From positions 174,282,001 through 174,346,000 of the forward strand of contig OX597816.1 of assembly GCA_951406725.2 (NCBI GenBank): 64,000 bases of DNA, given 5' to 3'. Shown one piece after another: positions 2,568 through 57,605 of this stretch. The notes beneath the pieces were generated by a model. That model ran no database searches. It worked only from the letters and a program-made list of their open reading frames with translations, and was not told the origin of the DNA. The stretch comes from Octopus vulgaris. Taxonomy: Eukaryota. Position 1 is the stretch's first letter; every line of letters begins with the position of its first letter. Made by a program: the position numbers and the translations under genes.

Positions 2568-4205
2568 TTATGGGGAAATAAACCTTGTACTTATAATTTT
2601 GTTATAAAGCGTTCTATAATGTCGTTGGGGATCAATAGATATATTCTTGGATCTCTGAATTCCGATTCCTGCATCGACTCCATATTTTTCCCCTAACCTA
2701 TCATAAAAGACTGAAAAATTATCAAGTTTGTTTTCGAGTACAGTTCTAGTTTTATCTATTTGCTGTTTACAATACACTATGTCATGACTTTTACTCTGGA
2801 GTATGTTAAATAAGACGTCAGTAAAAGAAAAAATGTCACTGAATACCTCTAACAAAAATAAGAAATCAGGAGCTTTTAAAGTGTGTAAGAATCCAATTGC
2901 TGAATTTATGGTGGTCTCATCCCATGCTTCAGGATTTTCAATGATGTGTTCAAAAAGGCTGATTATGAAATTATAATTTTCCTTTGTGGTAATAATAAGA
3001 CGTGAGGAGTAATTCCATCTAGTTGCTGTTGCTTTCGGAAATCTTTTTTTAACAATATTATCTAATGCATTAGTCCTTTTCGGTGATTTCGTAAAAAATG
3101 TACCGAGTCCATTTATTGTAGAAAAAAATATCTTGCATTCTTTCATAGCAGAGCATGATTGTGAAAGAACTAAATTTAGGATATGGGCACAACAATGAAT
3201 AAAGATCGCACATTCATATTTCTTTCTTACTTTTGCCTGTAACCCATTTAGTTGTCCTGCCATTGTAGCGGCACCATCATATGTCTGCGCAATCAATTTG
3301 TTTCCACATTCCCACGTCTCAATGCATTTAAAAACATGTTCAGATAAAGCATTTGCAGATCGATCTGCACTAACATCACTAAAACCGATAAATCGTTCTT
3401 TCGTCACACAGTCTTCTGTAACATAACGTAAAACTGTTGACAGTTGTGAAGATGCTGAGACATCAGATGTCTCATCAACAAGAATAGAAACAAACTTAGC
3501 TTGGTCAATTTCCTTCTGCATCTCATTCAACATAACTTTATGAATTGCTTCGATCAAGTCATTTTGAATTCTGTTCGACAGACCAGTGAAGATAGAAGCT
3601 GTATCTAAATGACTTTCCATTTGTTTGTCATACTTACTGATCAAATAAACGAGTTCTTTATAATTTGCCCGATTATTAGAGCCTTCAGATTCAAAATGAC
3701 CCCGAAACGATAATTCCTGGAGGCCTAAAAAAATAACAACATCGATCAATCGTTGCAGAATGGATCTGTTTCGTCGAACTTTCTCATTATGCTGTTGTAT
3801 GCTTTGATTTTTACGTGCATCTAATTGTAAGTCTATGCGAACATTCCCGAATATTTTAAGGTCTATCAAACATTTTATATGCCTTTGAGAACGCTCGTGC
3901 TTTAGCATAGCCATATGTAAATTATTTAAATCATCATAGCCTTTATCATTCCAAACATTTTTTTCTAAGCCAAAAAGTAAACACGGCCAACAGAATAATT
4001 TATTAAGAGCAACACTTCCAGTTAACCATTTCTTCTTTTCATACGAATTAACCTGAAATTGTCTCGTGAATTTCTTGTTGTAGCTTCGCAAATTAGGTAA
4101 ATTCGGTGTTGGTCTCCCGCGATTTATAATTAATTTTTTCCCATCGAAGTCCCTTTTAGAAAAACTAGTTCTCAAAATATCGTTTATAGCACACATTTCA
4201 CTCAT
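2568..4205 (-). CDS. hAT-family transposase (ZMYM1/DUF4371-like), C-terminally truncated
   Basis: Uninterrupted 545-aa ORF with LFCWPCLLF, LSFRGH, NYKEL, SNRIQNDLI, ILVDETSDVS, QTYDGAATMAG, FIHCCAHILNLVL and TRW; no hATC dimerisation domain. Confidence 0.9.
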   Translation of the reverse strand: MSEMCAINDILRTSFSKRDFDGKKLIINRGRPTPNLPNLRSYNKKFTRQFQVNSYEKKKWLTGSVALNKLFCWPCLLFGLEKNVWNDKGYDDLNNLHMAMLKHERSQRHIKCLIDLKIFGNVRIDLQLDARKNQSIQQHNEKVRRNRSILQRLIDVVIFLGLQELSFRGHFESEGSNNRANYKELVYLISKYDKQMESHLDTASIFTGLSNRIQNDLIEAIHKVMLNEMQKEIDQAKFVSILVDETSDVSASSQLSTVLRYVTEDCVTKERFIGFSDVSADRSANALSEHVFKCIETWECGNKLIAQTYDGAATMAGQLNGLQAKVRKKYECAIFIHCCAHILNLVLSQSCSAMKECKIFFSTINGLGTFFTKSPKRTNALDNIVKKRFPKATATRWNYSSRLIITTKENYNFIISLFEHIIENPEAWDETTINSAIGFLHTLKAPDFLFLLEVFSDIFSFTDVLFNILQSKSHDIVYCKQQIDKTRTVLENKLDNFSVFYDRLGEKYGVDAGIGIQRSKNISIDPQRHYRTLYNKIISTRFISP

Positions 4206-4948
4206 TTTAAAAAAGGCTGCTCTTATTTAAGGACCCACGTGGAAGCGCCGGCGTAAATTTTAAGTCAATTTCAACAAAACGGAAAAATACCCTTTGTTAA
4301 ATTAATTTAAGATTAATTAGCTATTTCTGAAATAAGAAATATAATGTAGATATTTTTGCTTTCAAAACTTTCTAAAAATATGATAGTGCAAACGGATGTT
4401 TTGGATAAAAAATTTCAAACTTACATGCGAAGGCTATTCCAACATTTCAGCTGGCTAAAACAAGAATTATGGGACGGCTCTTGTTCCAGTCAAAATAGCC
4501 AGAGAGCGTGATATGCGATCTAAGCACAGCATGACAAGCCAAACTGAATTTGTCGAATCGCTGAGAGAGAAGGGGGTGACCATTCCTCGTAGTATATCTT
4601 TTAAACAAAGAAAGAGGGAGAAGGGACAAACTATCAAAGACAGAGAGAAGGGACTCATGCTGTCTTCCCAACGCATGACAAGCGATAAATTTATCGAGTC
4701 ACTAAGATAGAGAGAGAGAGAGAGGAAGGAAGGACAAACTAATACAGACAGAGAGGGAGTGTGTATCATGCGATCTTCTAAAAGCATTTATCAAAGCAGA
4801 TGTACGAAGTGGAGACAATATTTCTAAAACAACTGGACGTATTTTCTTTGAAACAAGGAAGGCATGCAGCGCATACCTTGCATTGCTGAGAGTGCACGCC
4901 CCTGTATTAGAAAGACAATAAAGTACATCTTGAGTTTGTTCCACAGTG
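2590..4948 (-). mobile_element. hAT-like DNA transposon, one end missing
   Basis: CpG-richer block containing the transposase and a 5' region with repeated GAGAGAAGGGAC-like motifs; composition changes near 4948. Confidence 0.65.
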
Positions 4949-9278: not shown

Positions 9279-10666
9279 CTAGAAATATAAAGATATAAAG
9301 TGTGAACTATTAGTCAAAGTAACATACAGAAAATGTGTAGTAGTACTTATTTTAATGATCTGGAAAAATAAAAGGAATATTAATAATTTCTTACACTGGC
9401 CAAGAATCACAACTTAATCAACACCAGCATTTAAGCAGTACTTATTTTATTGACTGCTCCACTCCACCTCAAAGTCCTGAATGTATGAAAAACAAAATTT
9501 TAACGTTTCATTATATAAGAAATAAGTAGACTCAGCAAAAATAATAAGAAAGTAGAAATATAGGACTTACAACAAAATACATAACAAAAAAAAACCCGGG
9601 GCACCACCTTCAGAGAGGAATGTCCAAGGCCTATTGTGGTCATCTCTGTGTATATCTTGGCCCCCTAATTTTTCAGTGTACATAACATCTCTAGTTTGGT
9701 TGAGTTTGCTCTACTTTGGTAGTAGCCTTTTGTATATGGCTCATCTGGTATGTTAGTCACATTTGATAATTCTTTTGGTAACTGAGGACATTTAAATGAC
9801 AAACTATTGCAGAATCGAACAAATGATGCAAGAATTTGAGGAAGTGGGTGTTTAGATCTGACAGCTATCCCTAATTCCTCTTATTTTTTCCTACACAAGA
9901 TGTTTAAGAATCTTTCACATAGATATTATGGCATACCATTCCTACCAGCATTCCAAAGAGTAGAGAAAGTCCCATTCAGAGATGTTCATAATAACTACGA
10001 TCTCCAAATTTGCTCATATTTTTTAGTGAATGTTTTTTGCAAATCTTTCCAATTGGTGGATATGAACTGGGCTGCTAGTATATCATAGTTGTCAGCAGTA
10101 GTTTGAGCTTCATAAAGTAAGGATTTCTAAGTGCCAATATTACTGTCAGGTAATATCCTCAGTACACAATCACTGATCTCTCAACATACTGACAGTTTGT
10201 GAATATGGTTAGAGAAACGTGCATTTGCAGACACAGCAATGCTCATATAACAAATGTGCTCAGGGTTTTGAATTGGTATAAATATTAGAAGAAGCCTAAA
10301 AGAAGTTATGATTTTTTTACTTTCTCACTAGAAACATATCAGTAACAGTTCCAGCTGAGAATTAGAACAAACTTACTTATCTAATTTACTGAGACTTACT
10401 ACTACACCACACCAGCAAAATTATACTGATTATAAAATTTCTATTGTATTTATATTTTCCCTACTAGGTAAAATGTATGAACTGGTATATTTGATAAAGC
10501 ACTTACTTTCAATCATTCAGCTGTAGAGTAACTAAATACTGTGAAGTATCTGATCTGGCAATTTATATATTTTATGTTCATTCACCATTCTAGTATCAAA
10601 AATAAATTCCAACAGTGGCATAAGTCCACAAACTTTGTGCACTGGGAGATACTAGAAAGTCAGACA

Positions 10667-10897
10667 AGGGCTGGCAAGCTGGAAGGCTGCACCAGGCTCC
10701 AGTATGATTTGGCATGGTTTCTACAACTGGATGCCCTTCCTAATGCCAACTACTCCAAGAATGTAATAGGTGCTTTTATGTGCCAAAAAAGCACCCATTA
10801 CACTCTCAAAGTGGTTGATGTTAGGAAGGGCATCCAGCCATAGAAACCATGCCAAATCAGGCTAGAGTTTGGTGCAGCTTTCCAGCTTGCCAGCCCT
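10667..10897. repeat. Head-to-head inverted pair of RTE-type tails forming a hairpin
   Basis: 10667-10777 aligns without gaps to the reverse complement of 10787-10897; roughly 85% identity by eye. Confidence 0.85.
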
Positions 10898-11039
10898 GGT
10901 CAAACTGTCCAACCCATGCCAGCAGGGACAATGGACGTTAAATGATGATGATTGGTCAAAAGCAGATAATAAGGTTGCTCTTGACTGCTTTTAAGACAAA
11001 GTACTTCCTAAACATGGTATCAGAAAAAATGTCCACCAA

Positions 11040-16729: not shown

Positions 16730-18070
16730 ATTCCTCTCCAGCCTACACATATCCTCCACAGTCAAAGCCCATGTCTCACTATCATGTAACATAGCTGTTC
16801 TCACACAAGCATCATACAACCTACCTTTCACTTTAAGAGAGAGTCCTTTTGCTGCCAACAGAGGTAGCAGGTCTCTGAACTCCCTCTACCCTAATCTTAT
16901 TCTAGAAACAATACTTTCAAAACATCCACCACTGTTACTAATTTGGTACCCAAATAGCAGAAATTATCTACTATCTCAAGAGAACCTCCTAGGCATTTAA
17001 GAGAGTTTAAGTCCCTCATGCCCTTAGTATTTATTGTTCCTGTGCATCTGCCACACATGAAAGCAACCTTATCTGATAACCTTCCCATGATTCCACTGCA
17101 TCTCTTATGTGTCCATAGCTTGCACTTGGTGCAACATGTGAAATTATGTCCCACTTCTTTCCTACATATTGAGCAGGGCCATTTACCAGCCAGAATGATA
17201 GTCTTATCTCCTTTCTCACTAACAACTTTAGTCTCAGCTAAGTTAACTTCAAGTCCCTTTGATTCCAAGTTTTACTTTCAAACAAGGAACTTCTCCAATT
17301 CTGCTTCAGAATCTGCAATAGAAGCAAAACCATCAGCATATAGTAGTCCCCATGGGCATCCAGTTTCAAATGATGATGATGATGATGATTGCCTGGAGAA
17401 CTATGATGAATAAGAATGGAGTAAGAACTGATCCCTGGTGTACTCCAACTTGTGTGCTAAATTCATCACTGTATTCAAGGCCAACTCTCACCTTACTGAC
17501 AGCATCCCTGCACATGGCTTGAACAGCTCTAGCAAGCCACTTCCTTAGAGACCAACAGATAAGAGAGGGGGAACCCTGTCAAAAACTTTCTCTGGGTAGA
17601 CAAAAGTTAAGTACAATGGCTTACTTTAGGTCAAATACTTTTCCTGCAACTGTCTCACTATGAAGATGGCATCTGTGGTACTTGTCCCAGGAACAAAACC
17701 ACGCTACATCCCATCTATCTTAATTCTATCCATAATTAGTTGAGATATAACTGTCTCTGTAATTTTCATGACCTGATCCAATAATTTGATACCTCTGTAG
17801 TTGTTTCTATCTAAAACATAATCTTTACCCTTGTAGCAGCTGACTATAATACTGCTACACCAGACTTTTGGGATGACACCTTCCTGAATAACCTGATTAA
17901 CTATGCAAGTGACTAGGTTGTATCCCACACTACCTGATATTTTAATCATCTCAGTAGTGATACCTGAAGGTCCAGGGGCTTTCCTAGTCTTCATTCTCTT
18001 AATTGCCCTATCTACTTTGATGGCTGGTCCCTCAATTGGTACAATATTTGAAAGACTCTCCTTCTCCTAA
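16730..18070 (-). mobile_element. RTE LINE RT fragment with Cys/His (PHD-like) insert
   Basis: KAPGPSGITTEM, YKGK..DRNNYRGIKLLDQVMK, KWPCSICRK..CTKCKLWTHKRC and FCYLG. Confidence 0.88.
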
Positions 18071-20128: not shown

Positions 20129-23100
20129 TGTAGCATACTCATTGTGCCTGCTTGGATTATCTCAGGGCTAAACATAAAAGGCCAGAAGAGACGAAACAGG
20201 CAGCCACGATGCATGTGCAAAACACAACAGCCCTTAGCAGAAGATATAAAAGGCATATAAGAGCCCGACTGACAGGATTCTTCCTCTCTTTTCCCCTCTG
20301 GGTAGTCAGCTTGCCAACTGCCCACAGCTAGGACTGCTAGCTCTCTTTCTTTATTTTAGCATCCTACAAGTGGTGTTGAGATGACACTCTCACAGTAGGT
20401 ACTTCCTGATGATATATCTGCTTGCTTTGTGTTTTTGCTTAAACTGTACATGCCAGAATGCCATAACATCTTGCAACGAATCTCCAACAAAATAAAAATC
20501 ATTACAGCTATATTTAGTGAGCGTTCATTCCTCATTTACATGCAGCCTGCATCTAATCAGCCCTTCACCAACCTAACAATGAAAACACCCGTACACCTAC
20601 TAAAGTGGTGAACCCAATGTTGGAGAAAACCAAAACATTTCTCATGTGGCAGTACAGAGCATCATAGTGACATTTCTTTCGCCAAACTCACACCCTTGGC
20701 AAGTAACAATGGCTTCACCTTCCATGGCTGCTGTTTCTCATCCACCTGTGCCTATTTACACTGGAGAAAAAGTTCCATAAATGTATTAATGATGAACAGC
20801 AAGGGAGACTGAGCCCTGTCACAACCACTAGGCAGAATGCACCAGCTTGCTGAAGGCAATTCATTAGAGAGCAGTTTTCTCAAATACTATTTTCTTCTTG
20901 TCTGCCCTTTTACATCCAAGCCATTTTCACACCCATGTGCGACTTCAATACTGTTGAACAATTGGCAACATCAGCCAATAAAATAATGGAGATAACCACT
21001 TTAACGTTACCTTCTCCTTAATACCGTAGCAGTTATAACATCCCAGGATTTTCGACACACTACAGAAAAAACTATCGAAGATTTGATAGTGCAAGTTCGC
21101 AACCTCCATAGGGAAAGGAATACAGCCCCACATGCTAGATGCCAATCCCGCTCTAGGTCTCTATTTAGGCATCAATATGTTGGCAATCAGGGATTTGTAT
21201 GTTGGTGTCATATCAATTTCAGTGCCAAGACAAGGAATTGCACACCACCTTTCTCTTATAACACCCAGGGAAACGCCTGAACAGAGCAGTAAGCACGGCT
21301 ACTGTCTCTGGTATCACTCCACCAAGTCGTGCAATATTTATCCAAGATGAAATTTCCGGAGGAGCTTCCTGATTGCTGGAAAGCAAGAATTTTACGATCT
21401 ACACTGATCACAAGTTGCTATCCTTTGCTTTGAAATACAAGCCTGATAAATTCTCACCCCGAGATACCTGTTACTTGGATTTCGTTTCCCAATTCACCAG
21501 TGATATCCAGCACGTTCCTGGAAAAGAGAATATCGCTGCTGATGCTATCGACACCATATTCTATCGACACCATATTCTCATCTGTTGAGATCAATTCGGA
21601 TATGGCAAAAGATCAAATACGAGCAGAAGACAACAAACCAGAATTCTCTCCCTTTGACCTTCAACGACTACCTGTAACAACTTGCAACTCTGAGATTCTT
21701 TGTGACATCTCCACCAATTGGCCTCGTTGACTTGTGCTCGGGAACCACAGACACCGAGTGTTTTGTGCGCTACATAACATAATACACACGGGTGTTGCTG
21801 CCACTTTGAAGCTAATTTCAACTCATTTCGTCTGGCCTAACATGAAGCGAGACATCACTGAATGGGCCAGGAACTGCCTGCCTTGCAGAAAGCGAAGGGT
21901 CACAGTCACATCAAAGCTCCGCTGGGAACATTCACCCATCCCGACGCTCATTTCCAACATATCCATATAGGCCTTCTAGGACCCTGGCCTTTGAGTCAAG
22001 GATTTACGTGCTTGTTGACGTGCACAGACCATTTCTCATGATGGCCAGAAACCATACCTGTCACAGGCATGTCATCACTAACTGCCGCTCAAACTCTTGT
22101 ATCGGGTTGGATTTCTCATTTCAGTACATGTGCAACAATTACCGACAGAGGTCAGTAATTTGAATCTCAACTTTTCTACGATCTGACAAAAATCTATCAT
22201 CCTGCCTCAAATGGATCCATCAAGCGATTTCATCGCCAGTTAAAAGCATCTTTGCATGCATATCCTGACCCACAGAAACGGACAGAATATTTCCCCGTTG
22301 TTCTTCTTGTTCTGCTGGCAAAGTAAACATTGGTTTTTCCCCAGCAGAATTGTCGTATGGACCACCTTTATCGTTAACTGGTCAAATGATCACTCCAGTT
22401 TCTTTGCATTTACCAGATTACTCAAACTATGTGGATAGTCTTAGACATTATATGGAGACTTTGCCTCCCACTAACACAAGACAGCAATTCACTAAGTCCT
22501 ATGTTCTGGCTGACATATTATCCTGGACTCACGTTTTTGTAAGGAATGATGCAGTTAGCCATCCACTAACCCCTCCACACCAAGGACCTTATCGAGTGTT
22601 ATCTCATGCAAATTCGTCACTGTTGACTATAAAGATGTGAAAGACACTGCCAGTGTAGATAGACTAGAAAAGGCCTACATAGACATGTAACAGGATCTGG
22701 AATCGGTATCACTGAAGGGGTGTCCGATCCGATCCCGTCACATTCAATTTAGTTAGATATAACAGACGAAGTCAGGTTATCTGGGAAAGACAGCAAATTG
22801 TGGTTTATTACTCGTGATGGTGTAGATCTGGTGTACGTATTTCTGAGGGGAACCGACAGCCGAATCTTTGTACTGCTTCTTGTTGGTTGGTTGAAGTGAT
22901 TCGATGTGGTTCGTTGCTAAGCCGGTGTAGAGTTCTCAGAGACTACCAAATGCACGTCTGTTCACGAGGGCTGAAAGGGCCAGAGAGAGTGAGTGAATGG
23001 ACTGTGGTTTTAGGGGTCAGTTTCGCGCACATGCGCATGGGGAAGACTTCCGGTGGCCACCCGAAAGTAGTCCCATTCTGCGCATGCGCGCTGAACCTTA

Positions 23101-23860: not shown

Positions 23861-25076
23861 TGTAGCAGCGCACCCGTCGTGCCTGATGTGTGTTATCTCA
23901 TTGCTAAACATAAAAGGCCCGAAAAGGTCGAAGTGGGCAGCCACCACGCATGCGCAAAACACAAACAGCCCTTAACAGAAATCGTAAAAGGCATATATAT
24001 TTCTTTACTACCCACAAGGGGCTAAACATAGAGGGTACAAACGGATTCAGTCGAGTTTATCGACCCCAGTGCATAACTGGAACTTAATTTATCGACCCCG
24101 AAAGGATGAAAGGCAAAGTCGACCTCGGCGGAATTTGAACTCAGAACGTCGTGACAGACGAAATACCTATTTCTTTATTACCCACAAGGGGCTAAACACA
24201 GAGGGGACAAACAAGGACAGACATAGGTATTAAGTCGATTACATCGACCCCAGGGCGTAACTGGTACTTAATTTATCGACCTCGAAAGGATGAAAGGCAA
24301 AGTCGACCTCGGCGGAATTTGAACTCAGAACGTCGTGACAGACGAAATACCTATTTCTTTATTACCCACAAGGGGCTAAACACAGAGGGGACAAACAAGG
24401 ACAGACATAGGTATTAAGTCGAGTTTATCGACCCCAGTGCATAACTGGTACTTAATTTATCGACCCCGAAAGGATGAAAGGCAAAGTCGACCTCGGCGGA
24501 ATTTGAACTCAAAACGTCGTGACAGACGAAATACCTATTTCTTTATTACCCACAAGGAGCTAAACACAGAGGGGACAAACAAGGACAGACATAGGTATTA
24601 AGTCGATTACATCGACCCCAGGGCGTAACTGGTACTTAATTTATCGACCCCGAAAGGATGAAAGGCAAAGTCGACCTCGGCGGAATTTGAACTCAGAACG
24701 TCGTGACAGACGAAATACCGCTAAGCATTTCGCCCGGCGTGCTAACGTTTCTGCCAGCTCGCATATAAAGAGCCCGACTGAGAGGACTTTTCCCTTTTTG
24801 CTAGGACTGCTATCTCTCTTTCTTTGCATCAGTGCCTTACACGTGGTGACGAGATCACTCTTTCATAGTAGGTACTTCCTGACGAGATATTCGCTCGCTC
24901 TGGTTTTTGCTTAAACTGTACATGCCAGAATGCCATAACATCTTGCGACGAATCTCCATCAAAATAAAAATCGTTACAGCTATATTTAGTGAGTGTTCAT
25001 TCCTCATTTACACGCAGCCCACACCTAGACAGCACTTCACCAACCTAACCATGAAAACACCCGTACACCCACTAAA
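23861..25076 (+). mobile_element. Second LTR homologous to 20129-20604, split by a SINE concatemer
   Basis: Shared blocks GCTAAACATAAAAGGCC, GAGCCCGACTGA, GCTTAAACTGTACATGCCAGAATGCC and ATGAAAACACCCGTACAC. Confidence 0.88.
23998..24760 (-). repeat. SINE family B with four tandem body units (period 184 bp)
   Basis: Units start at 23998, 24168, 24352 and 24536; one head at about 24720-24760; GCATATA on both sides. Confidence 0.92.
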
Positions 25077-25230
25077 AATTCGGAATTTGGAGGCATGAAA
25101 TGACGAATGTAGTGTCAGTCAATGAATCACACTTTTTGATAAAAATAAAAGCTGCAAAATTATTAATTCTACCAATGTGAAGGCAATAAACTGAATTCAT
25201 AAATTCACCCAGTGTTTGACATTTTATTGA

Positions 25231-27316: not shown

Positions 27317-28865
27317 AGATCTTTACCCTTTGAACGGCAGATCGAGAAATTAATTTTTTGTATCTAAACACTTTCAAACTTCAGACAATGGAAAAATGTG
27401 TCATATAAAACATCTTTTACTCTTAGTATTGTTGGGAAAAGTTTATATTTTCAAAGTTATTTCGCGTTAAAGTTGTCGTATTTCAGTAATTTCAACCAAT
27501 CAATGACGTGTATTCAACTGAATAAAATTACTGCTGTTGTTTGTCTACTACAACTTCCGGCGGTGTATATTTCATTTGTCACTGTTATTTATGACATATT
27601 TCATCTCAGTTACGTTTGCATGAATAAACGAGGGATCTTTTCGGTTTGAACGGCATTTTTAAAAATAATTTCTATGTAACTAAAAAATTTTAAACTTCGT
27701 ATACTGGTAGAATGTGTTTATAAAACATCTTTTCCTCTTAGCTTTCTTGAGAAAATTCTATAGTTTGTAAGATATTTGGTTTTTAATTTCTTGCATTTCC
27801 GCAATTTCAACCAATCAATGACGTCTATTGAGGTGAAAACGATTTCTACCATAACATTTTATGACGGCATCATATGAAAGTGTCCCTGTTTTTTGAGAAA
27901 AAAGATACCCTGTGACCATAAACTGAGGGGTCACTCGTAAACAGAGCTGGATAACAAAGTCGTTCCCTCTTTAGTGTTCACCCATAATTATGACCCTAGT
28001 ATCGATCTATTGCATTTCAATCTGTGTTAGGGTTAGGGGTGGGGGGAAGAGTATCTTTTTTTTCTTCAGAAATGTAAATAAACCCAATCTGTTTCTTAAA
28101 CGAGGGACATTTTCATATTTCACTGCCAGAAGATTTTATGGCAGATAATGTTTTCACCTCAATAGACATCATTGATTGGTTGAAATTACCAAAATTGAAG
28201 AAAATATCTTACAAACTACAGAATTTTCTCAAGAAAGCCAAGAGGAAAAGATGTTTTATAAACACATTCTACCAGTATACGAAGTTTAAAAGTGTTTAGT
28301 TACATAGAAATTATTTTTAAAAACTGCCGTTCAAACCGAAAAGATCCTAAATGAGTGTATCTGAAGCATGTTTACTTCATGACACCACCACAATCGTTCG
28401 TGCATTTCTACTGCTTTTGTTTTTCTTTTTTCCTGTTTTCAGCTACTATTTTCGGAAAGACTTTTGTGCCCCCCTCCCCCTCCAATTTCTTTTTCACTTT
28501 TTTTTGTAACTCTAACCCTAAAATCCCAACCCTAATCCTAAAACCCTAACCCTAAAGCTAAAACCAGTACAAATGCATGAACGATGTCATAAATAACAGT
28601 GACAAACGAAATATACACCGCCGATAGTTGTTGTTGATAAACAACGGCAGTAATTTTATTCAGCTGAATATATGTCATTGATTGGTTGAAATTACCGAAA
28701 TACGACAACTTTAACACGAAATAACTTTGAAAATATAAACTTTTCTCAACAACACTAAGAGTAAAAGATGTTTTATATGACACATTCTACCAATGTCTGA
28801 AGTTTGAAAGTGTTTAGTTACAAAAAATTAATTTCTCGATCTGCCATTCAAAGGGAAAAAGATCC
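27317..28865. mobile_element. GGATC-ended long-TIR MITE, 8-bp TSD (Merlin- or MULE-type)
   Basis: About 280-bp TIRs; flanks CTGAAAAG and CCGAAAAG. Confidence 0.85.
27633..28347. mobile_element. Related GGATC-ended MITE nested inside the previous one, 8-bp TSD
   Basis: GGATCTTTTCGGTTTGAACGGCA TIRs of about 210 bp; flanks TAAACGAG and TAAATGAG. Confidence 0.85.
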
Positions 28866-34108: not shown

Positions 34109-37100
34109 TTTCTGAACCAACTTTCTTTGTCTCAAGAACATTGTTTAATCTCTAATCCAGCTTCATCTTAAGAATTACTTCACCTATTTTCAAAATTTGT
34201 ATTGTATGAACATTAAACATATCATTGGCAAAGTCTAATACAGACATTTCTTAAGAAGGTCATTTTTTAATGCATCAAATGAAAAAGGAATTTCAGTTAT
34301 AAATTCAATTATAAAGCACTACTTTAAAAATGTAAAAGTTTCTTTAATTATAAAAAAAAAGCAATAATTAGGATAATACTTTTTCTATATTTCTGAGGTG
34401 AGTAATTATGTACATCATTTACAATGTACAGATAGGTATCCTCACCTTGTTTGTTGTACATCAGCTGAAAAATTGTGATAACAACAAACAAGGTGAGGAC
34501 ACCTGTGCAATAAATTGAAATTTAGTAATGTTCAGTAACATTTTAGTGTTTTTACTGATAGTGCAATGGAGTGGATTGAAAGAAAAGCTAGAGCAAAAAA
34601 ATAAAATATCTTTTAGACCAGAATTTGCCATATGTATAAAGATTATTCTTCATATTAAAGGGGTAATTTTAAAATTCATTGATTTACAACATCAAGTATG
34701 CTAGCATCCGTTTTACTGAAATATATTTAGTTCAATGCTCTTCCATTTAAGATACTTCACAATCTTCTGCTGTATAAAATGATAAGTGACAATAAAGCTA
34801 TGAATTCAAAGTTTATTTCAGCAGTATGTAACTTTCTGAGCAAACCAAATAAGTTTGACAGAGTAATGGGGAAGTGGTAAAACTATAGACTGCTGGATTA
34901 AATGCACAGCAACATTTAATTTTGTCCCTCTATGTACTGAGTTCAAACCTCATGAGGACTAGCTAAAACAAGTAGCAGTTAATTCAGTTGATCCTCTAGC
35001 TCTGCACTGCTATACCACAATAATGAGTTAATTTATTAGCTCAAGACTGAAAACTTTGGGAAAAGAATGTAGTTAACTCATTCTTTCCTAATTCATGACT
35101 AGTTTTATCAAACCTAGTGAGAATTGAAGTTAACATAGAGAGACAGTACCAAAGGCTGTAGTTTCAAGCTCTAATAGTGTTGCTACTTGACCACCTGGAG
35201 AGGTGGCTGCGTATTGGAAATATGTGTTTTTTGCAAGGGTCAGAAGTGAAAGGTGTTAACCAGGAACCTGCATTATGGATTTTCCATCACTTCATGCTCT
35301 ATATATTTATACCACAATCACAACAACAGTACTACTAATCAGTCTTAACACTAAGCAGATGGTCACACATTTTGGAAAAGGGTATATTTACTGAGGGAAT
35401 ATGAAGTAAAAGGGCAAGTAAACCCCTGAAAAATTTGAATTCAGAACATAGGGAGAAAATTAAATACTATATGTTTCATCTAGCAGTTTATTGTTTCTAT
35501 CACTTCACTAACAAGCCAACAAGGAAATCCTTGCATGGTTACTTGGCCTGCTAGAAATAGAGGCCAAATCTTTCTCAAATCATACCCTACCATCTTAAAA
35601 AAGGAAGAACACATTGATTACTGTAGTCTTAAATATACTACCTAAATAAAGACATAATGGTTATGACTGGAATGCCTTTATAATAAAAAATAATAATGAA
35701 ATTATTGTATACAGTGCTCAGGTGCACCACAACTTTGATCATTCAGATCTCACCTAGAGCTAAAAAAATAGTAATAAAATTATTAATAATTGTTTTGAAC
35801 ATAGACAAAAAAGCAGAAATTTGGAGAAGGGGAATGGTTGATTATATTGATCCCAGTCCTTGACTGGTTCTTTATTTATTGGCTCTGAAAGAATGAAAAG
35901 CAAAATAGTTCTGGCAAAATTTGAAATCAGAACATAATAATGATTTCAAACTTTGGCACAAGGCCAGCAATTTCAGGAAAGGGGCTAAGTCAATGAAATC
36001 GACCCCAGTGTTCAACTGGTACTTATTTTATCAACCCTGAAAGGATAAAAGGTGAAGTTGACCCTGGAAGCCTTTGAACCCAGAATGTGAAGATAGATGA
36101 AATCCCACAAGGCATTTTGCCCAGCATTCTAATGATTCTGCCAGCTCACAACTTTAACCCAGAAAACAGTAATAATCATGTGATAAAATAAAAAACATAA
36201 GTAACAGATAAAAATATGAAGCAGTTTATTAATAATAAAGCATCAATTTATAAAGATATGCAATAAACATATCATGCATTACGTATCGATACAATAAAAA
36301 AAATAACAGATCAGGATGGAGAGACAGATATTCCAGTAAAATGGTTATGAGTAATAATAATGCTGGTATGAAGCAAAAAAAAAAACAAAAAATGGAAAAA
36401 GCGAAAAATAGAATTGAAATATAATGTTCAACTTGATAATTAATCCAAATTAGGCCCATTTTGGTCTGGTGATGACAAATTTGGTTACGATACATGCTGT
36501 ATATAAGAGAGTTCAGCTCAGCATGCTAAAAGCATTGGTTGGATAAAAGTAATGATGCAGTGTGCCCACTATTTACAGTGGTGAGATGGACGTGTTTACT
36601 GTAACAAAATGTCATTTTTTTAGTGTCTGTTTACAGCTTGATGGCCTAGCAGCAAGTGTAAAGTATATATTGGCTATGGTTACAGCAGAATAGCAACTAC
36701 TGACCCTTTCAGTTGGGCATTCTATTGACTTTGTCATCTGTAACACTTGATAACTCAAACAATGGAAGAAAGTTAATAAAAAGAAACTGTAGAAAATTTA
36801 ATGTTTTTGTATAATTGTATACAAAAAGGTAAATATTAGAAATTTTTTAAAAGCAGCATAGTGAATCCTATCAAGGCCTTGCACACCTGACTCATCTTCT
36901 TATCTATTGCCTCTCTTTTTTCCCATTTAATCCAATCATTTCATTTATCACTCATACCCCTCCATCTCTTATGTTCCCCACTACCTACGAAGTTCACAAA
37001 CTATGAATGGCTGCCCTGCATACTACTTCCATCCTTCACTAGGCCTATATATGACAGAATGGGTGTCCATTCACACCCCACCTTCCCTCCTCTATCCATC

Positions 37101-50845: not shown

Positions 50846-51539
50846 CTGGTCAGGTAAATAAACAAGGTTTTACTCAACAATGGTGATATGTGATCATAGG
50901 AAACTGGACAAAAAATTAAATTGTAGGTCACATCCAAATTACACAAAGGCACTATTTGAATCAACTATGAGGCTACTTGATCTGCAAGAAAATATAAGTG
51001 AAATTCCTTTCAAATCACATTCAATTGGCTTAAGAAATTAAGGACACATTACAAACTGTAGTGCTTGATATGTTGTGTCTGAAACAGTAACAGCTTTTGA
51101 TTTTTAGATCTGTTCAGTCAGAGGTAAGACATCAGCAAAGAATCAGTTGTAAACAAGTCAACTCTGGCAATCAAAAGTTATATATGAACAAATTCTAGGT
51201 TAAATGGTTGAGTAACTCTAAGTAGCTCTGTTCGTCATTGGTAAGCAATTACAGACAATTCTAAACAAGATCTACTCTATAGTTGCTAAAAGTTTAAATT
51301 GACTAATCTTATCTGAGTTATCTCCTTTGCTTGTTAAATTTTAAACATCACTAGAAAGTTTTTATTTTCTAATTGCAAAGTTGATGCTTTACTGCATCTA
51401 TTACATACGATTTGCTGCAACCACCTCTGATCATCATTTTTAAGTAACCACATTTGTTGTACATTTCTTATCTTTGAATAATCTCCTAGTAACTGATTAT
51501 TACCATTACATTCCCTTAACTCCTTACTTTGGATAGCCT

Positions 51540-51635
51540 TGTAAGAAATATGAACGCATGTGGTCGCATTGTGTAGGGAATACGATCGCACATGGTCATA
51601 TTTCTTACACTGGTGACCCCGACGTGATATGATCA
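51540..51635 (+). mobile_element. Micro-insertion: palindromic 70-bp LTR-like unit plus tRNA-Trp PBS
   Basis: TGTAAGAAATATGA...TCATATTTCTTACA, C, TGGTGACCCCGACGTGAT, ATGATCA; GCCT on both flanks. Confidence 0.75.
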
Positions 51636-52279
51636 GCCTATTTAAAGAGTTAAGATGGCTCAAATGAAAAGTCCTATCCGAAAGCCGTGATTGGTCAGTT
51701 TACACACTGGCGCGAAGTAAGTAGAGAGACAGACCGTGCTTAGATGCTAACCAATCAAAATAGTGGACACAACAACATTAAACTAGCCAAAGATGTTTGT
51801 AATCTCAAACGAGATCATTCTTAATATTTTTCTCAAACAGTGAAGATAGCAATGAAGAAAACAATATTGCTACAGCCTCAATCAGCTGTGTTTTTGTAGG
51901 TTGTGTAGTTCTATCAGACCTACTCAAGCAAACTTAGTATAACAACAGTACTGAGAACAGCAGTGTTTGTAAGGGAGGTATTGATAATTGCATAGTTTTC
52001 TGAGTGGAATATGACATTAAGGTAGTCCATCAAAATGTTAGCAAAGACTAAGTAACATTATTTTTTGTTACCCTTGTGTTTATTTGGTTTTATTTAGCAT
52101 TGTTCATTACATCTCAATATAGGATGTTTTTTATCCACACAATATAAGTTAGCACTTACTTTACAACATCAAAATAGTTGCTTAAGAGTTTCCAGTATAA
52201 TCCCAATCATAATATATTGGTAAGAATTAAAATTATTGATTCATGACTATGGACATCAACACAAGTTCGCAAGTAGCAA

Positions 52280-54736: not shown

Positions 54737-55691
54737 TTACATGGAAAATGCGAGCAAGAGAAATAATATTCCTAAGATATTAAACCTGGAAAAAAGTACA
54801 GGACAAGTTATTACACTTGGAAAAGTTCAGGACAACTTATTACATCTGGTAAAGTACAGAACAAGAAAATTTATACTTAAATCATTGCAGCTAAGGATAA
54901 AATTTCAAATAAAATATTTAGATTTAGAAAATATTAGCTTTTATTAAAACTAAAAATTTTATTACAAGTTATTACTTCTATTAAAAATAAAAAATAACTC
55001 AAAATATTTTTGCACTTTAGAAATAATACAAAAATTAGTTATATATTACACTAAAATCTACCTATAACAACAAATTCACAGTAAAATTTATTTGAGTTAT
55101 TGCCAAGTCTTCATATTTTTAGTCTTGACCCAATGTCTATTTTTTACATAATGAATTTGCCTGCCACATGTGCTATTCTACTTTGCATAAAACTTTAGCT
55201 ATTTTGGTTCTGGTTCTCCTTTTTCAAGTATTCTAGTGTGTCAATATTTAAAAAAAATAAGGCGGCAAACTGGCAGAAATGTTAGCACGCTGGGCAAAAT
55301 GCTTAGTGGTATTTTGTCTGTCTTTATATTTCTGAGTTCAAATTCTGCCGAGGTCGACTTTGCTTTTCATCCTTTCAGAGTCAACAAATTAAGTACCAGT
55401 TGCATACTGAGTTGATCTAATTGACTGGCCCCCTCGTCAAAAATTTTGGGCCTTGTGCCTAGAGTAGAAAAGAATATTGTAACAAAATGATGGTACCTTT
55501 TTTAATTATGTTACTTTGTAAATTAAAATCAAATAATTTTTGATATTCAAATTTTATCCTTAGCTGCAATATTTTAAGTAAAAATTTTATTGTTCTGTAC
55601 TTTACCAGATGTAATAACTTGTCCTGTAATTTTCTAAGTGTAATAATTTGTCCTGTGATCATTTCTCTTGCTCGCATTTTTTCATGTAATC
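54737..55691. mobile_element. Foldback/long-TIR element with an internal family B SINE
   Basis: 54737-54920 matches the reverse complement of 55535-55691 (AAATGCGAGCAAGAGAAAT...TTATTACATCTGGTAAAGTACAGAAC). Confidence 0.8.
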
Positions 55692-56199: not shown

Positions 56200-57225
56200 T
56201 CTTCCAGTACTGTCTCAACAATGGTGCTACTCCGGAGCAGTGGAAAACTGCCAGTGTCATTCCTCTGTTCAAAAAGGGCGACCGCACATCACCTGTCAAC
56301 TATCGCCCAGTCAGTCTCACTAGCTGTATTGCAAAACCGATGGAATCGTGTGTCAGAGAAACACTTTGGAACTTCTGGAGCTCTCACAGTCTCATCCGAC
56401 CCTCACAATATGGATTTGTCCCTAACTCCAGCTGCAGTGATCAGCTTGTCGAGTTCCTTGAGGACATTACTCAGATCACTGTGGCTCATGGGTGGATGTT
56501 GTCTACCTTGACTTTGCTAAGGCTTTCAACTCTGTGCCACACAAAAGGCTTATGGTGAAACTCTCTGCAATGGATGTAAGGGATGACCTTTTTAACTGGT
56601 TGAAATCCTTCATTCTCAACCGAAAGGAGGTAGTCACAGTTCTAGGACAGCATTCTACACCATATGAGATGTCATCGGGTGTACCACAGGGATCTGTCTT
56701 TGGTCCCCTCTTGTTTGTGGCATACATTAATGACATAGATGCAAATTTAAAGAATGCCACAGTATTGAAATATGCAAACGACATCAAGCTGTACCTTGAA
56801 ATCAAGAGGACAGATCCTGTTGTCTACAGCTCTTTCCTGCAATCAGACCTGGACACAATGCAGCAATGGAACTGGCTGTGGACAAGTGTACCACCATGCA
56901 TTTTGGGAGAAAAAAACCCTGCGTCCACATACTCCCTCCACAACACTGATATCAAGAAATCCTCTTGTGAGCGTGACCTAGGCATCACTGTCAGCAGTGA
57001 TTTGCGTTGGACAAAGCATATCTCTAAAATTGTCAAGAAGGCCGAGGGTGTCTTGGCATCACTCAGCAAGACTTTTGTTAGCCGCTCTCCAGCCATCTAT
57101 TTAAAACTGTATACAGCTATGGTACGACCACACTTGGAATTCGCATCATCAGTTTGGAACCCCTATCTTGCTCAGAACATTGACCTCCTGGAATCTTTTC
57201 AGAGACGTGCAACCAAACGCATAAC
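56200..57225 (+). mobile_element. CR1 LINE reverse transcriptase fragment
   Basis: NYRPVSLT, DVVYLDFAKAF, SGVPQGSV, YAND (decayed YADD), ERDLGI and VRPHLEFAS.VWNP. Confidence 0.92.
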
Positions 57226-57605
57226 CAAACTGAATTAGCAGCAAGCTCTGAAAGGTGATGCACATGAGTAAATTGCAGCCTTAAGAATATTATTCAACTA
57301 CTACCATAGTTGAATGATACCAGCAATTCATTGCCTGTTTATTAGTCACTGATACCTACTTTCAATCCCTCCATCTGCCACTCTAGTCATCTATCCAATC
57401 ATGCCTGCCTGCCACACCTGTCTGTTTTCCAGGCCTGTTTGCTATACAAGTTATACATGGAGATGAGGCAAAATTTAGTTTTAAACCATACTCTAACCTC
57501 TTCCTTCAGTAATAAAAAAATAACAAACTATTAAATAAGCAAAAATATTTTTTTTTAACTATCAAATAGTAAAAAAAAAAGCCAAAGAAAGCAACAATTA
57601 CTTAC

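Follow-up and report, generated by a model that had tools for sequence, protein, structure and literature searches.

Organization of the 335-bp unit

The stretch of Octopus vulgaris DNA analyzed here, 64,000 nucleotides long and called the window below, contains at positions 51540 to 51874 a unit of 335 bp. It is composed of a 70-bp LTR-like repeat (the 70-mer), one further nucleotide, an 18-nt primer-binding site (PBS), and the 3' portion of another repeat, designated R2. The tetranucleotide GCCT stands outside both ends; to call it a target-site duplication (TSD) is to rely on four matching bases at a border defined by contigs. The only overlapping open reading frame of at least 120 amino acids has no match in Pfam. 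The features are as follows.

51536..51539, +, left target-site duplication GCCT (sequence; flank single-copy in four of four runs)
51540..51609, +, 70-bp self-complementary LTR-like repeat, TG...CA (fold, inverted repeat, contig depth)
51611..51628, +, 18-nt PBS, complement of the tRNA-Trp(CCA) 3' end (Rfam, A. mellifera, tRNA genes)
51623..51628, +, 6-nt microhomology between PBS 3' end and R2, the chimeric junction (R2 contigs start at 51623 in X3, X7, and X8)
51623..51874, +, R2, 3' portion of another repeat with very high copy number, ends CA (contigs)
51875..51878, +, right target-site duplication GCCT (sequence; border set independently by contigs)

Read data over 51100-52100 come from four runs (X3, X4, X7, and X8, with four organism labels, from four studies), used as assembled contigs; 24 runs were listed, 20 of them with part of the stretch. 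Statements about contig pieces and joints refer to those listed, beyond which lie 237 loose ends and 1006 pieces. Depth summed over the 70-mer is 12-159x that of the flank in the four runs, and over R2 (51712-51847) it is 165-3200x, figures that are not copy numbers. What they establish is that the 70-mer and R2 are each multicopy, R2 being by far the more abundant.

A self-complementary LTR-like repeat

The sequence-only reading had described 51540-51609 as beginning with TG, ending with CA, and folding almost end to end, and the letters, the inverted repeat, and the fold energy agree in bearing this out. The terminal inverted repeat, perfect over 14 bp, pairs 51540-51553 with 51596-51609; in ungapped register 50 of the 70 positions (71%) are complementary, and the DNA fold of -16.9 kcal/mol (z -5.67) was matched in stability by none of 200 shuffles. 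A hairpin by itself is nothing unusual in this window, where four other places have perfect inverted repeats of at least 14 bp within 100 bp. Further short near-perfect hairpins, without TG...CA ends, lie at 1869-1924 and 34439-34499. A 28-bp TG...CA micro-hairpin at 17832-17859 has ends (TGTAGCA / TGCTACA) that match the start of the LTR at 20129 and the end of R2; a clear TSD is absent from it.

The 70-mer can also be read as two overlapping units of 38 nt in a degenerate tandem. The direct repeat within it has 23 of 32 positions identical at a 32-nt offset, a level reached by 2 of 5000 palindrome-preserving shuffles. Folded as RNA, the 96 bp that run from the 70-mer through the seven letters after the PBS are predicted to favor the hairpin of the inner unit together with a helix in which LTR and PBS pair.

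Neither the 70-mer nor the PBS nor R2 occurs a second time within the 64-kb window. Rfam gave no match at the gathering score, and its weak matches to MIR6217, Yfr19, and a snoRNA were rejected as identities, being at chance level. The LTR arms of the 70-mer found no match in a metagenome collection, nor did the LTR-PBS junction in viral contigs. No description of a 70-bp hairpin LTR family was found in the literature searched, and going by that literature, a short self-complementary LTR family of this kind appears undescribed; Repbase, Dfam, and the supplements of mollusc repeat surveys may include it. The silkworm element Mag has an LTR of 77 bp, and we therefore claim no record for shortness.

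The tRNA-Trp primer-binding site and a second locus

For a terminal CA to be followed, one base later, by an exact primer site of 18 nt, the chance is about 2e-7 per window. The 18-mer found in that place, across a gap of 1 nt, is the PBS of Rous sarcoma virus in the Rfam RSV_PBS alignment, and is the complement of A. mellifera tRNA-Trp-CCA as given in the supplement of PMC10886601. Rfam, the A. mellifera tRNA, and tRNA genes thus concur with its earlier identification as a tRNA-Trp PBS at the spacing usual for an LTR, an identity that rests on the tRNA-Trp of other organisms and not on the host's own gene. ARAGORN finds no tRNA gene in the 64-kb window, and Rfam at E up to 10 finds no tRNA match in 51400-51800. 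A scan of viral contigs with a 15-mer found 86 loci, nine of them with the full 18-mer and none with the LTR end of the 70-mer. In one of the nine, viral contig L028 (4302 bp), the surroundings of the 18-nt Trp PBS differ from those in the other eight.

In X7 and X8 the PBS is covered at no more than about 8-9x flank depth, versus 40-57x in the adjacent LTR bin. Most copies of the 70-mer therefore appear to occur without a PBS, as solo LTRs would.

A second locus with a PBS is represented by one contig each in X3, X7, and X8, at 0.7-2.2x flank depth, and is seen from contigs without strand. It has the same LTR end and PBS, followed by 18 other letters and then by a return to the LTR at position 51599. 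Twelve of the first 13 letters after the PBS match tRNA-Trp (the commoner gene variant), with the base at position 58 missing. The PBS with 11 of these letters has 129 matches, at 125 metagenome loci, and ARAGORN places 121 of the matches in tRNA-Trp(CCA) genes, one in a Cys gene, and seven outside any called gene; all ten metagenome loci that were rechecked are Trp. Viral contigs gave no match to the PBS with its extension. Judged by their letters, the extra residues of the second locus are primer read-through, and the 70-mer family, by implication, does leave strong-stop accidents. HIV-1 proviruses carry tRNA inserts of 7-54 nt at deletion junctions, ascribed to aberrant second-strand transfer in the part of PMC12657518 used here.

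Repeat R2 and the corrected borders

The sequence-only reading had placed a complete insertion in 96 bp, made up of LTR, PBS, and a 7-nt tail with a TSD of its own. AGCCT or GCCT does flank those 96 bp on both sides, and ATGATCA does follow the PBS. R2 contigs from elsewhere argue otherwise. At 16 and 25x flank depth, contigs match 51623-51716 (X7) and 51623-51710 (X8) with no differences in either and have other sequence before 51623; more diverged R2 contigs also begin at 51623 (X3, X8), and loose ends upstream of that position (X3, X7) are unlike the PBS. Because R2 elsewhere carries 51623-51716 behind different upstream sequence, the tail at 51629-51635 and the GCCT at 51636-51639 are native to R2. 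The repeat runs on to 51874, and the 96-bp unit with its own TSD does not stand. A bare strong-stop insertion with its own TSD was rejected as a candidate on the same evidence. So was tRNA read-through as the source of the 7-nt tail, of which only 4-5 of 7 letters match the tRNA complement, and which consists of native R2 letters.

We accordingly regard as very improbable an LTR-PBS-tail element of 96 bp with its own GCCT duplication beside an unrelated repeat fragment. AGCCT on both sides and a tail ending in CA speak for it, CAGCCT being expected within 20 nt with a chance of about 0.002 when taken alone. However, R2 copies elsewhere keep 51623-51716 unchanged, with a different upstream, and the leftover 51640-51874 would begin without TG and without a left TSD.

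In all four runs, loose ends have the last nine letters up to 51874 in common and diverge after it. In X3 and X4 a single-copy right-flank contig begins at 51846, roughly 30 bases before the repeat ends; in X7 and X8 most of the right flank is uncovered, which speaks neither for nor against the border. GCCT directly after 51874 has a chance of 0.0018 at a fixed site. On the left, single-copy flank contigs reach 32-50 bases into the 70-mer in four of four runs, so the left junction is common to them all. No joint that skips the insertion, leaving an empty site with a single GCCT, is among those listed for X3, X4, X7, and X8. Elsewhere in the window the flanks of the 335-bp unit have no match that could point to a hot spot.

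No sequence similarity links the R2 part with the 70-mer (a score as high is reached by 458-497 of 500 shuffles), and R2 has no match in the prokaryote genomes scanned. R2, known here from its 3' part alone, has a CA end and TATA-like and CCAAT motifs. The hexamer ATTAAA at 51777 is private to this copy, with another letter in 97-99.7% of the depth; it was therefore rejected as a poly(A) signal of R2, and gives no support to R2 as an LTR.

The PBS-R2 junction and its origin

The PBS and R2 overlap by six nucleotides, and the overlap stops exactly at the last base of the PBS. Microhomology of at least 6 nt has a chance of about 0.002. Folded as DNA, the LTR with its PBS is predicted to form a hairpin with all 19 of the 3' bases unpaired. 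The suggestion that the hairpin presents both att ends is at odds with this predicted structure, in which folding back yields one duplex end and a 19-nt unpaired 3' tail. Integration requires two duplex ends; the folded 70-mer offers one, and the second would here have come from R2.

We tentatively favor, at somewhat less than an even chance, an origin of 51540-51874 as strong-stop DNA that was mis-transferred onto R2 in faulty reverse transcription and then integrated. Plus-strand strong-stop DNA, consisting of the LTR and an 18-nt tRNA copy, would stop at m1A58 and fold into its predicted hairpin while the PBS tail stayed free. The last six nucleotides of the tail, rather than pairing with the correct PBS, would anneal to the minus strand of a co-packaged R2; synthesis would proceed to the CA end of R2, and a Gypsy-type integrase would insert the TG...CA-ended product and make the 4-bp duplication. 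R2, putatively, would have to be an LTR-type passenger. The resulting 335-bp copy is predicted to be dead.

Strong-stop DNA is a likely source because the junction falls at the 18th base of the PBS, where such DNA ends, one base before m1A58 (from the relevant part of PMC8599865). Mis-transfer followed by integration is favored further because the intact TG terminus directly follows the left GCCT, while the shared CA of R2 directly precedes the right one, and because the terminal letters are alike, TGTAAGAAATAT versus reverse complement TGTAGCAATATT. A Trp PBS with a 4-bp TSD is also the pattern of the CsRn1 clade, as far as PMC2582038 was drawn upon, and the second locus and the HIV-1 products in PMC12657518 show accidents of like kind. 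Several points weaken it. The LTR identity of R2, seen by its 3' part only, is putative. Both ends belong to one element in the HIV-1 precedent, so far as the portion of PMC12657518 used here describes it, whereas a foreign template is required here. The listed joints include no empty site, and the TSD is a 4-bp match at a contig-defined border; none of the listed pieces, which are the longest ones, bridges the PBS-R2 junction. Finally, the nearer AGCCT match, itself improbable, would have to be a coincidence.

A junction at the PBS end is equally expected if strong-stop DNA was captured without integrase. A resident full-length R2 would then own the two GCCT, the strong-stop tail would anneal at the 6-nt match and replace the 5' part of R2, and the left side would probably be joined through TGTA terminal letters that the two share. 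This works for R2 as either an LTR or a MITE, and cDNA of Tf1 and HIV-1 inserts without integrase at short PBS homologies, often in resident elements, according to the part of PMC11042837 consulted. Against it, the left crossover must hit exactly the first base of R2, the Tf1 target motif in that source matches the first PBS bases and not the last, and no allele with an intact R2 is among the contigs listed for the four runs. We consider capture, the main rival reading, unlikely. Strong-stop origin as such, common to capture and to mis-transfer with integration, is probable. The earlier proposal of a strong-stop intermediate thus holds for the origin and for the join at the 18th PBS base; it fails for a bare insertion with its own TSD, as tail and GCCT are R2.

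A microhomology of 6 nt is also typical of deletions. A longer element with 70-bp LTRs and R2 might have inserted at one site, in either order, with a later microhomology deletion from the PBS to R2; insertion of two elements at the same site is documented in Drosophila, in the portion of PMC5932611 used. Two extra events would be needed, the deletion would stop at the last PBS base by chance only, and the flanks match no hot spot elsewhere in the window, all of which makes this sequence of events improbable.

The 70-mer may, lastly, belong to a hairpin family that has no normal internal region and spreads as bare LTR or as LTR-PBS strong-stop DNA, folded into its hairpin with the primer tail free, borrowing its second integrase end from any template on which it happens to land. 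We hold this to be rather improbable. If it were true, the family would be a one-LTR parasite smaller than a SMART, the two PBS-bearing loci with visible continuation, each of which stops at the PBS or shortly past it, would be its normal products, and a proof that it has no internal region would establish a new minimal way to parasitize LTR retrotransposons.

Read as mis-transfer followed by integration, the unit would preserve, as a fossil in the genome, an error of reverse transcription that HIV-1 also makes, except that here a different repeat supplied the second end. It would show one route to chimeric mobile elements whose two ends differ. The mechanism itself has precedents in HIV-1 and Tf1; what is unusual is the short hairpin LTR family behind this accident. 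Nothing suggests a function for the host.

Comparison with known systems

Products of aberrant (delayed) second-strand transfer in HIV-1 resemble the unit in having a 5' LTR and PBS, with or without tRNA letters, joined to downstream sequence and integrated by normal ends (PMC12657518, in the part used). Here, in contrast, the right part derives from another repeat of the host, the setting is a retrotransposon in an animal genome, and the event is common to four samples. Integrase-independent insertion of Tf1 and HIV-1 likewise joins a PBS tail to resident DNA by short homology (the cited part of PMC11042837), whereas here the unit in its entirety lies within a 4-bp duplication and has kept its left LTR end intact.

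The unit also recalls TRIM and SMART elements. FRetro129, biv-TRIM, and Helenus are, in the portions of PMC3281118, PMC6934838, and PMC10886601 used here, non-coding, about 300 bp long, and equipped with short TG...CA repeats and a PBS. FRetro129, a SMART of 292 bp, has 85-bp LTRs (PMC3281118), and the 70-bp LTR is shorter. Animal Helenus elements, some of them Trp-primed, have a 4-bp TSD like that of the 335-bp unit (PMC10886601). As in TRIMs, a PBS follows the 5' repeat (after 1 nt), and the sequence is non-coding, shorter than 1 kb, and flanked by a TSD. The unit differs from those descriptions in having no second LTR copy, no PPT, and no tRNA gene in the LTR, and in an LTR of 70 bp that is largely self-complementary. 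ARAGORN and Rfam find in it nothing like the tRNA-like sequence in the LTR of Helenus (TRIMp3), the 70-mer has no 3' copy that a PPT could stand before, and no short LTR-PBS-LTR joint is among the contig joints listed. With second LTR and PPT absent, the unit is not a TRIM.

Likeness to the CsRn1 clade of Ty3/Gypsy elements consists in a tRNA-Trp PBS and a 4-bp TSD (PMC2582038), and the comparison rests on these two features, the unit having no coding sequence. In the part of PMC3601003 used, CsRn1 LTRs average 330 bp, and their end motifs, TGTGGYG / MSYYAMA, differ from the ends of the 70-mer.

TG...CA, similar termini, and a 4-bp TSD fit both Gypsy elements and Ginger transposons, the latter as presented in the part of PMC2836005 used. 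The 335-bp chimera might thus itself form a small mobile family whose ends differ, mobilized either by an integrase of Gypsy type or by a transposase of Ginger type, and the PBS depth allows up to about 8-9x flank (X7, X8), although this bound takes in all PBS-bearing copies. Ginger MITEs, however, have terminal inverted repeats of 40-270 bp, and GCCT is the target of neither Ginger1 (CCGG/CCGT) nor Ginger2 (RTATAY), according to the same source. A tRNA derivation of Ginger ends was dropped as an idea, since PMC2836005 nowhere mentions tRNA. The unit has an inverted repeat of 14 bp within the 70-mer, or a short, imperfect terminal match when taken as a whole. A mobile chimera is therefore quite improbable.

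Other features of the window

A possible helper lineage had been proposed in a Gypsy element elsewhere in the window.

20129..20623, +, broken Gypsy: 477-bp LTR and decayed Trp-type PBS (20606-20623, 12/18); RNase H and integrase zinc-finger fragments downstream

The decayed Trp-type PBS, with 12 of 18 positions matching, was confirmed. The helper role was not: the LTR bears no resemblance to the 70-mer (31-200 of 200 shuffles reach a score no lower), and for this reason the element was rejected as its parent. Similarity of the same LTR to R2 is at most marginal. All that the element demonstrates is the presence, at some time, of Trp-primed Gypsy elements in this genome. Its LTR has a diverged second copy at 23861-25077, interrupted at 24031-24762 by a four-unit 184-bp SINE-like array, and this copy may be the 3' LTR of the element. 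The SINE-like repeats of the window appear similar to those of octopuses. The flanks of the LTR pair, AACT and AATT, match at three of four positions.

Three long inverted repeats, MITE- or foldback-like, lie at 27322-28859 (283-nt arms), 10655-10909 (126), and 54789-55665 (120). An open frame of 552 amino acids at 2568-4226 (-) contains DUF4371, and is presumably the remnant of a hAT-type transposase. Another, of 258 amino acids at 56462-57238 (+), contains an RVT_1 domain.
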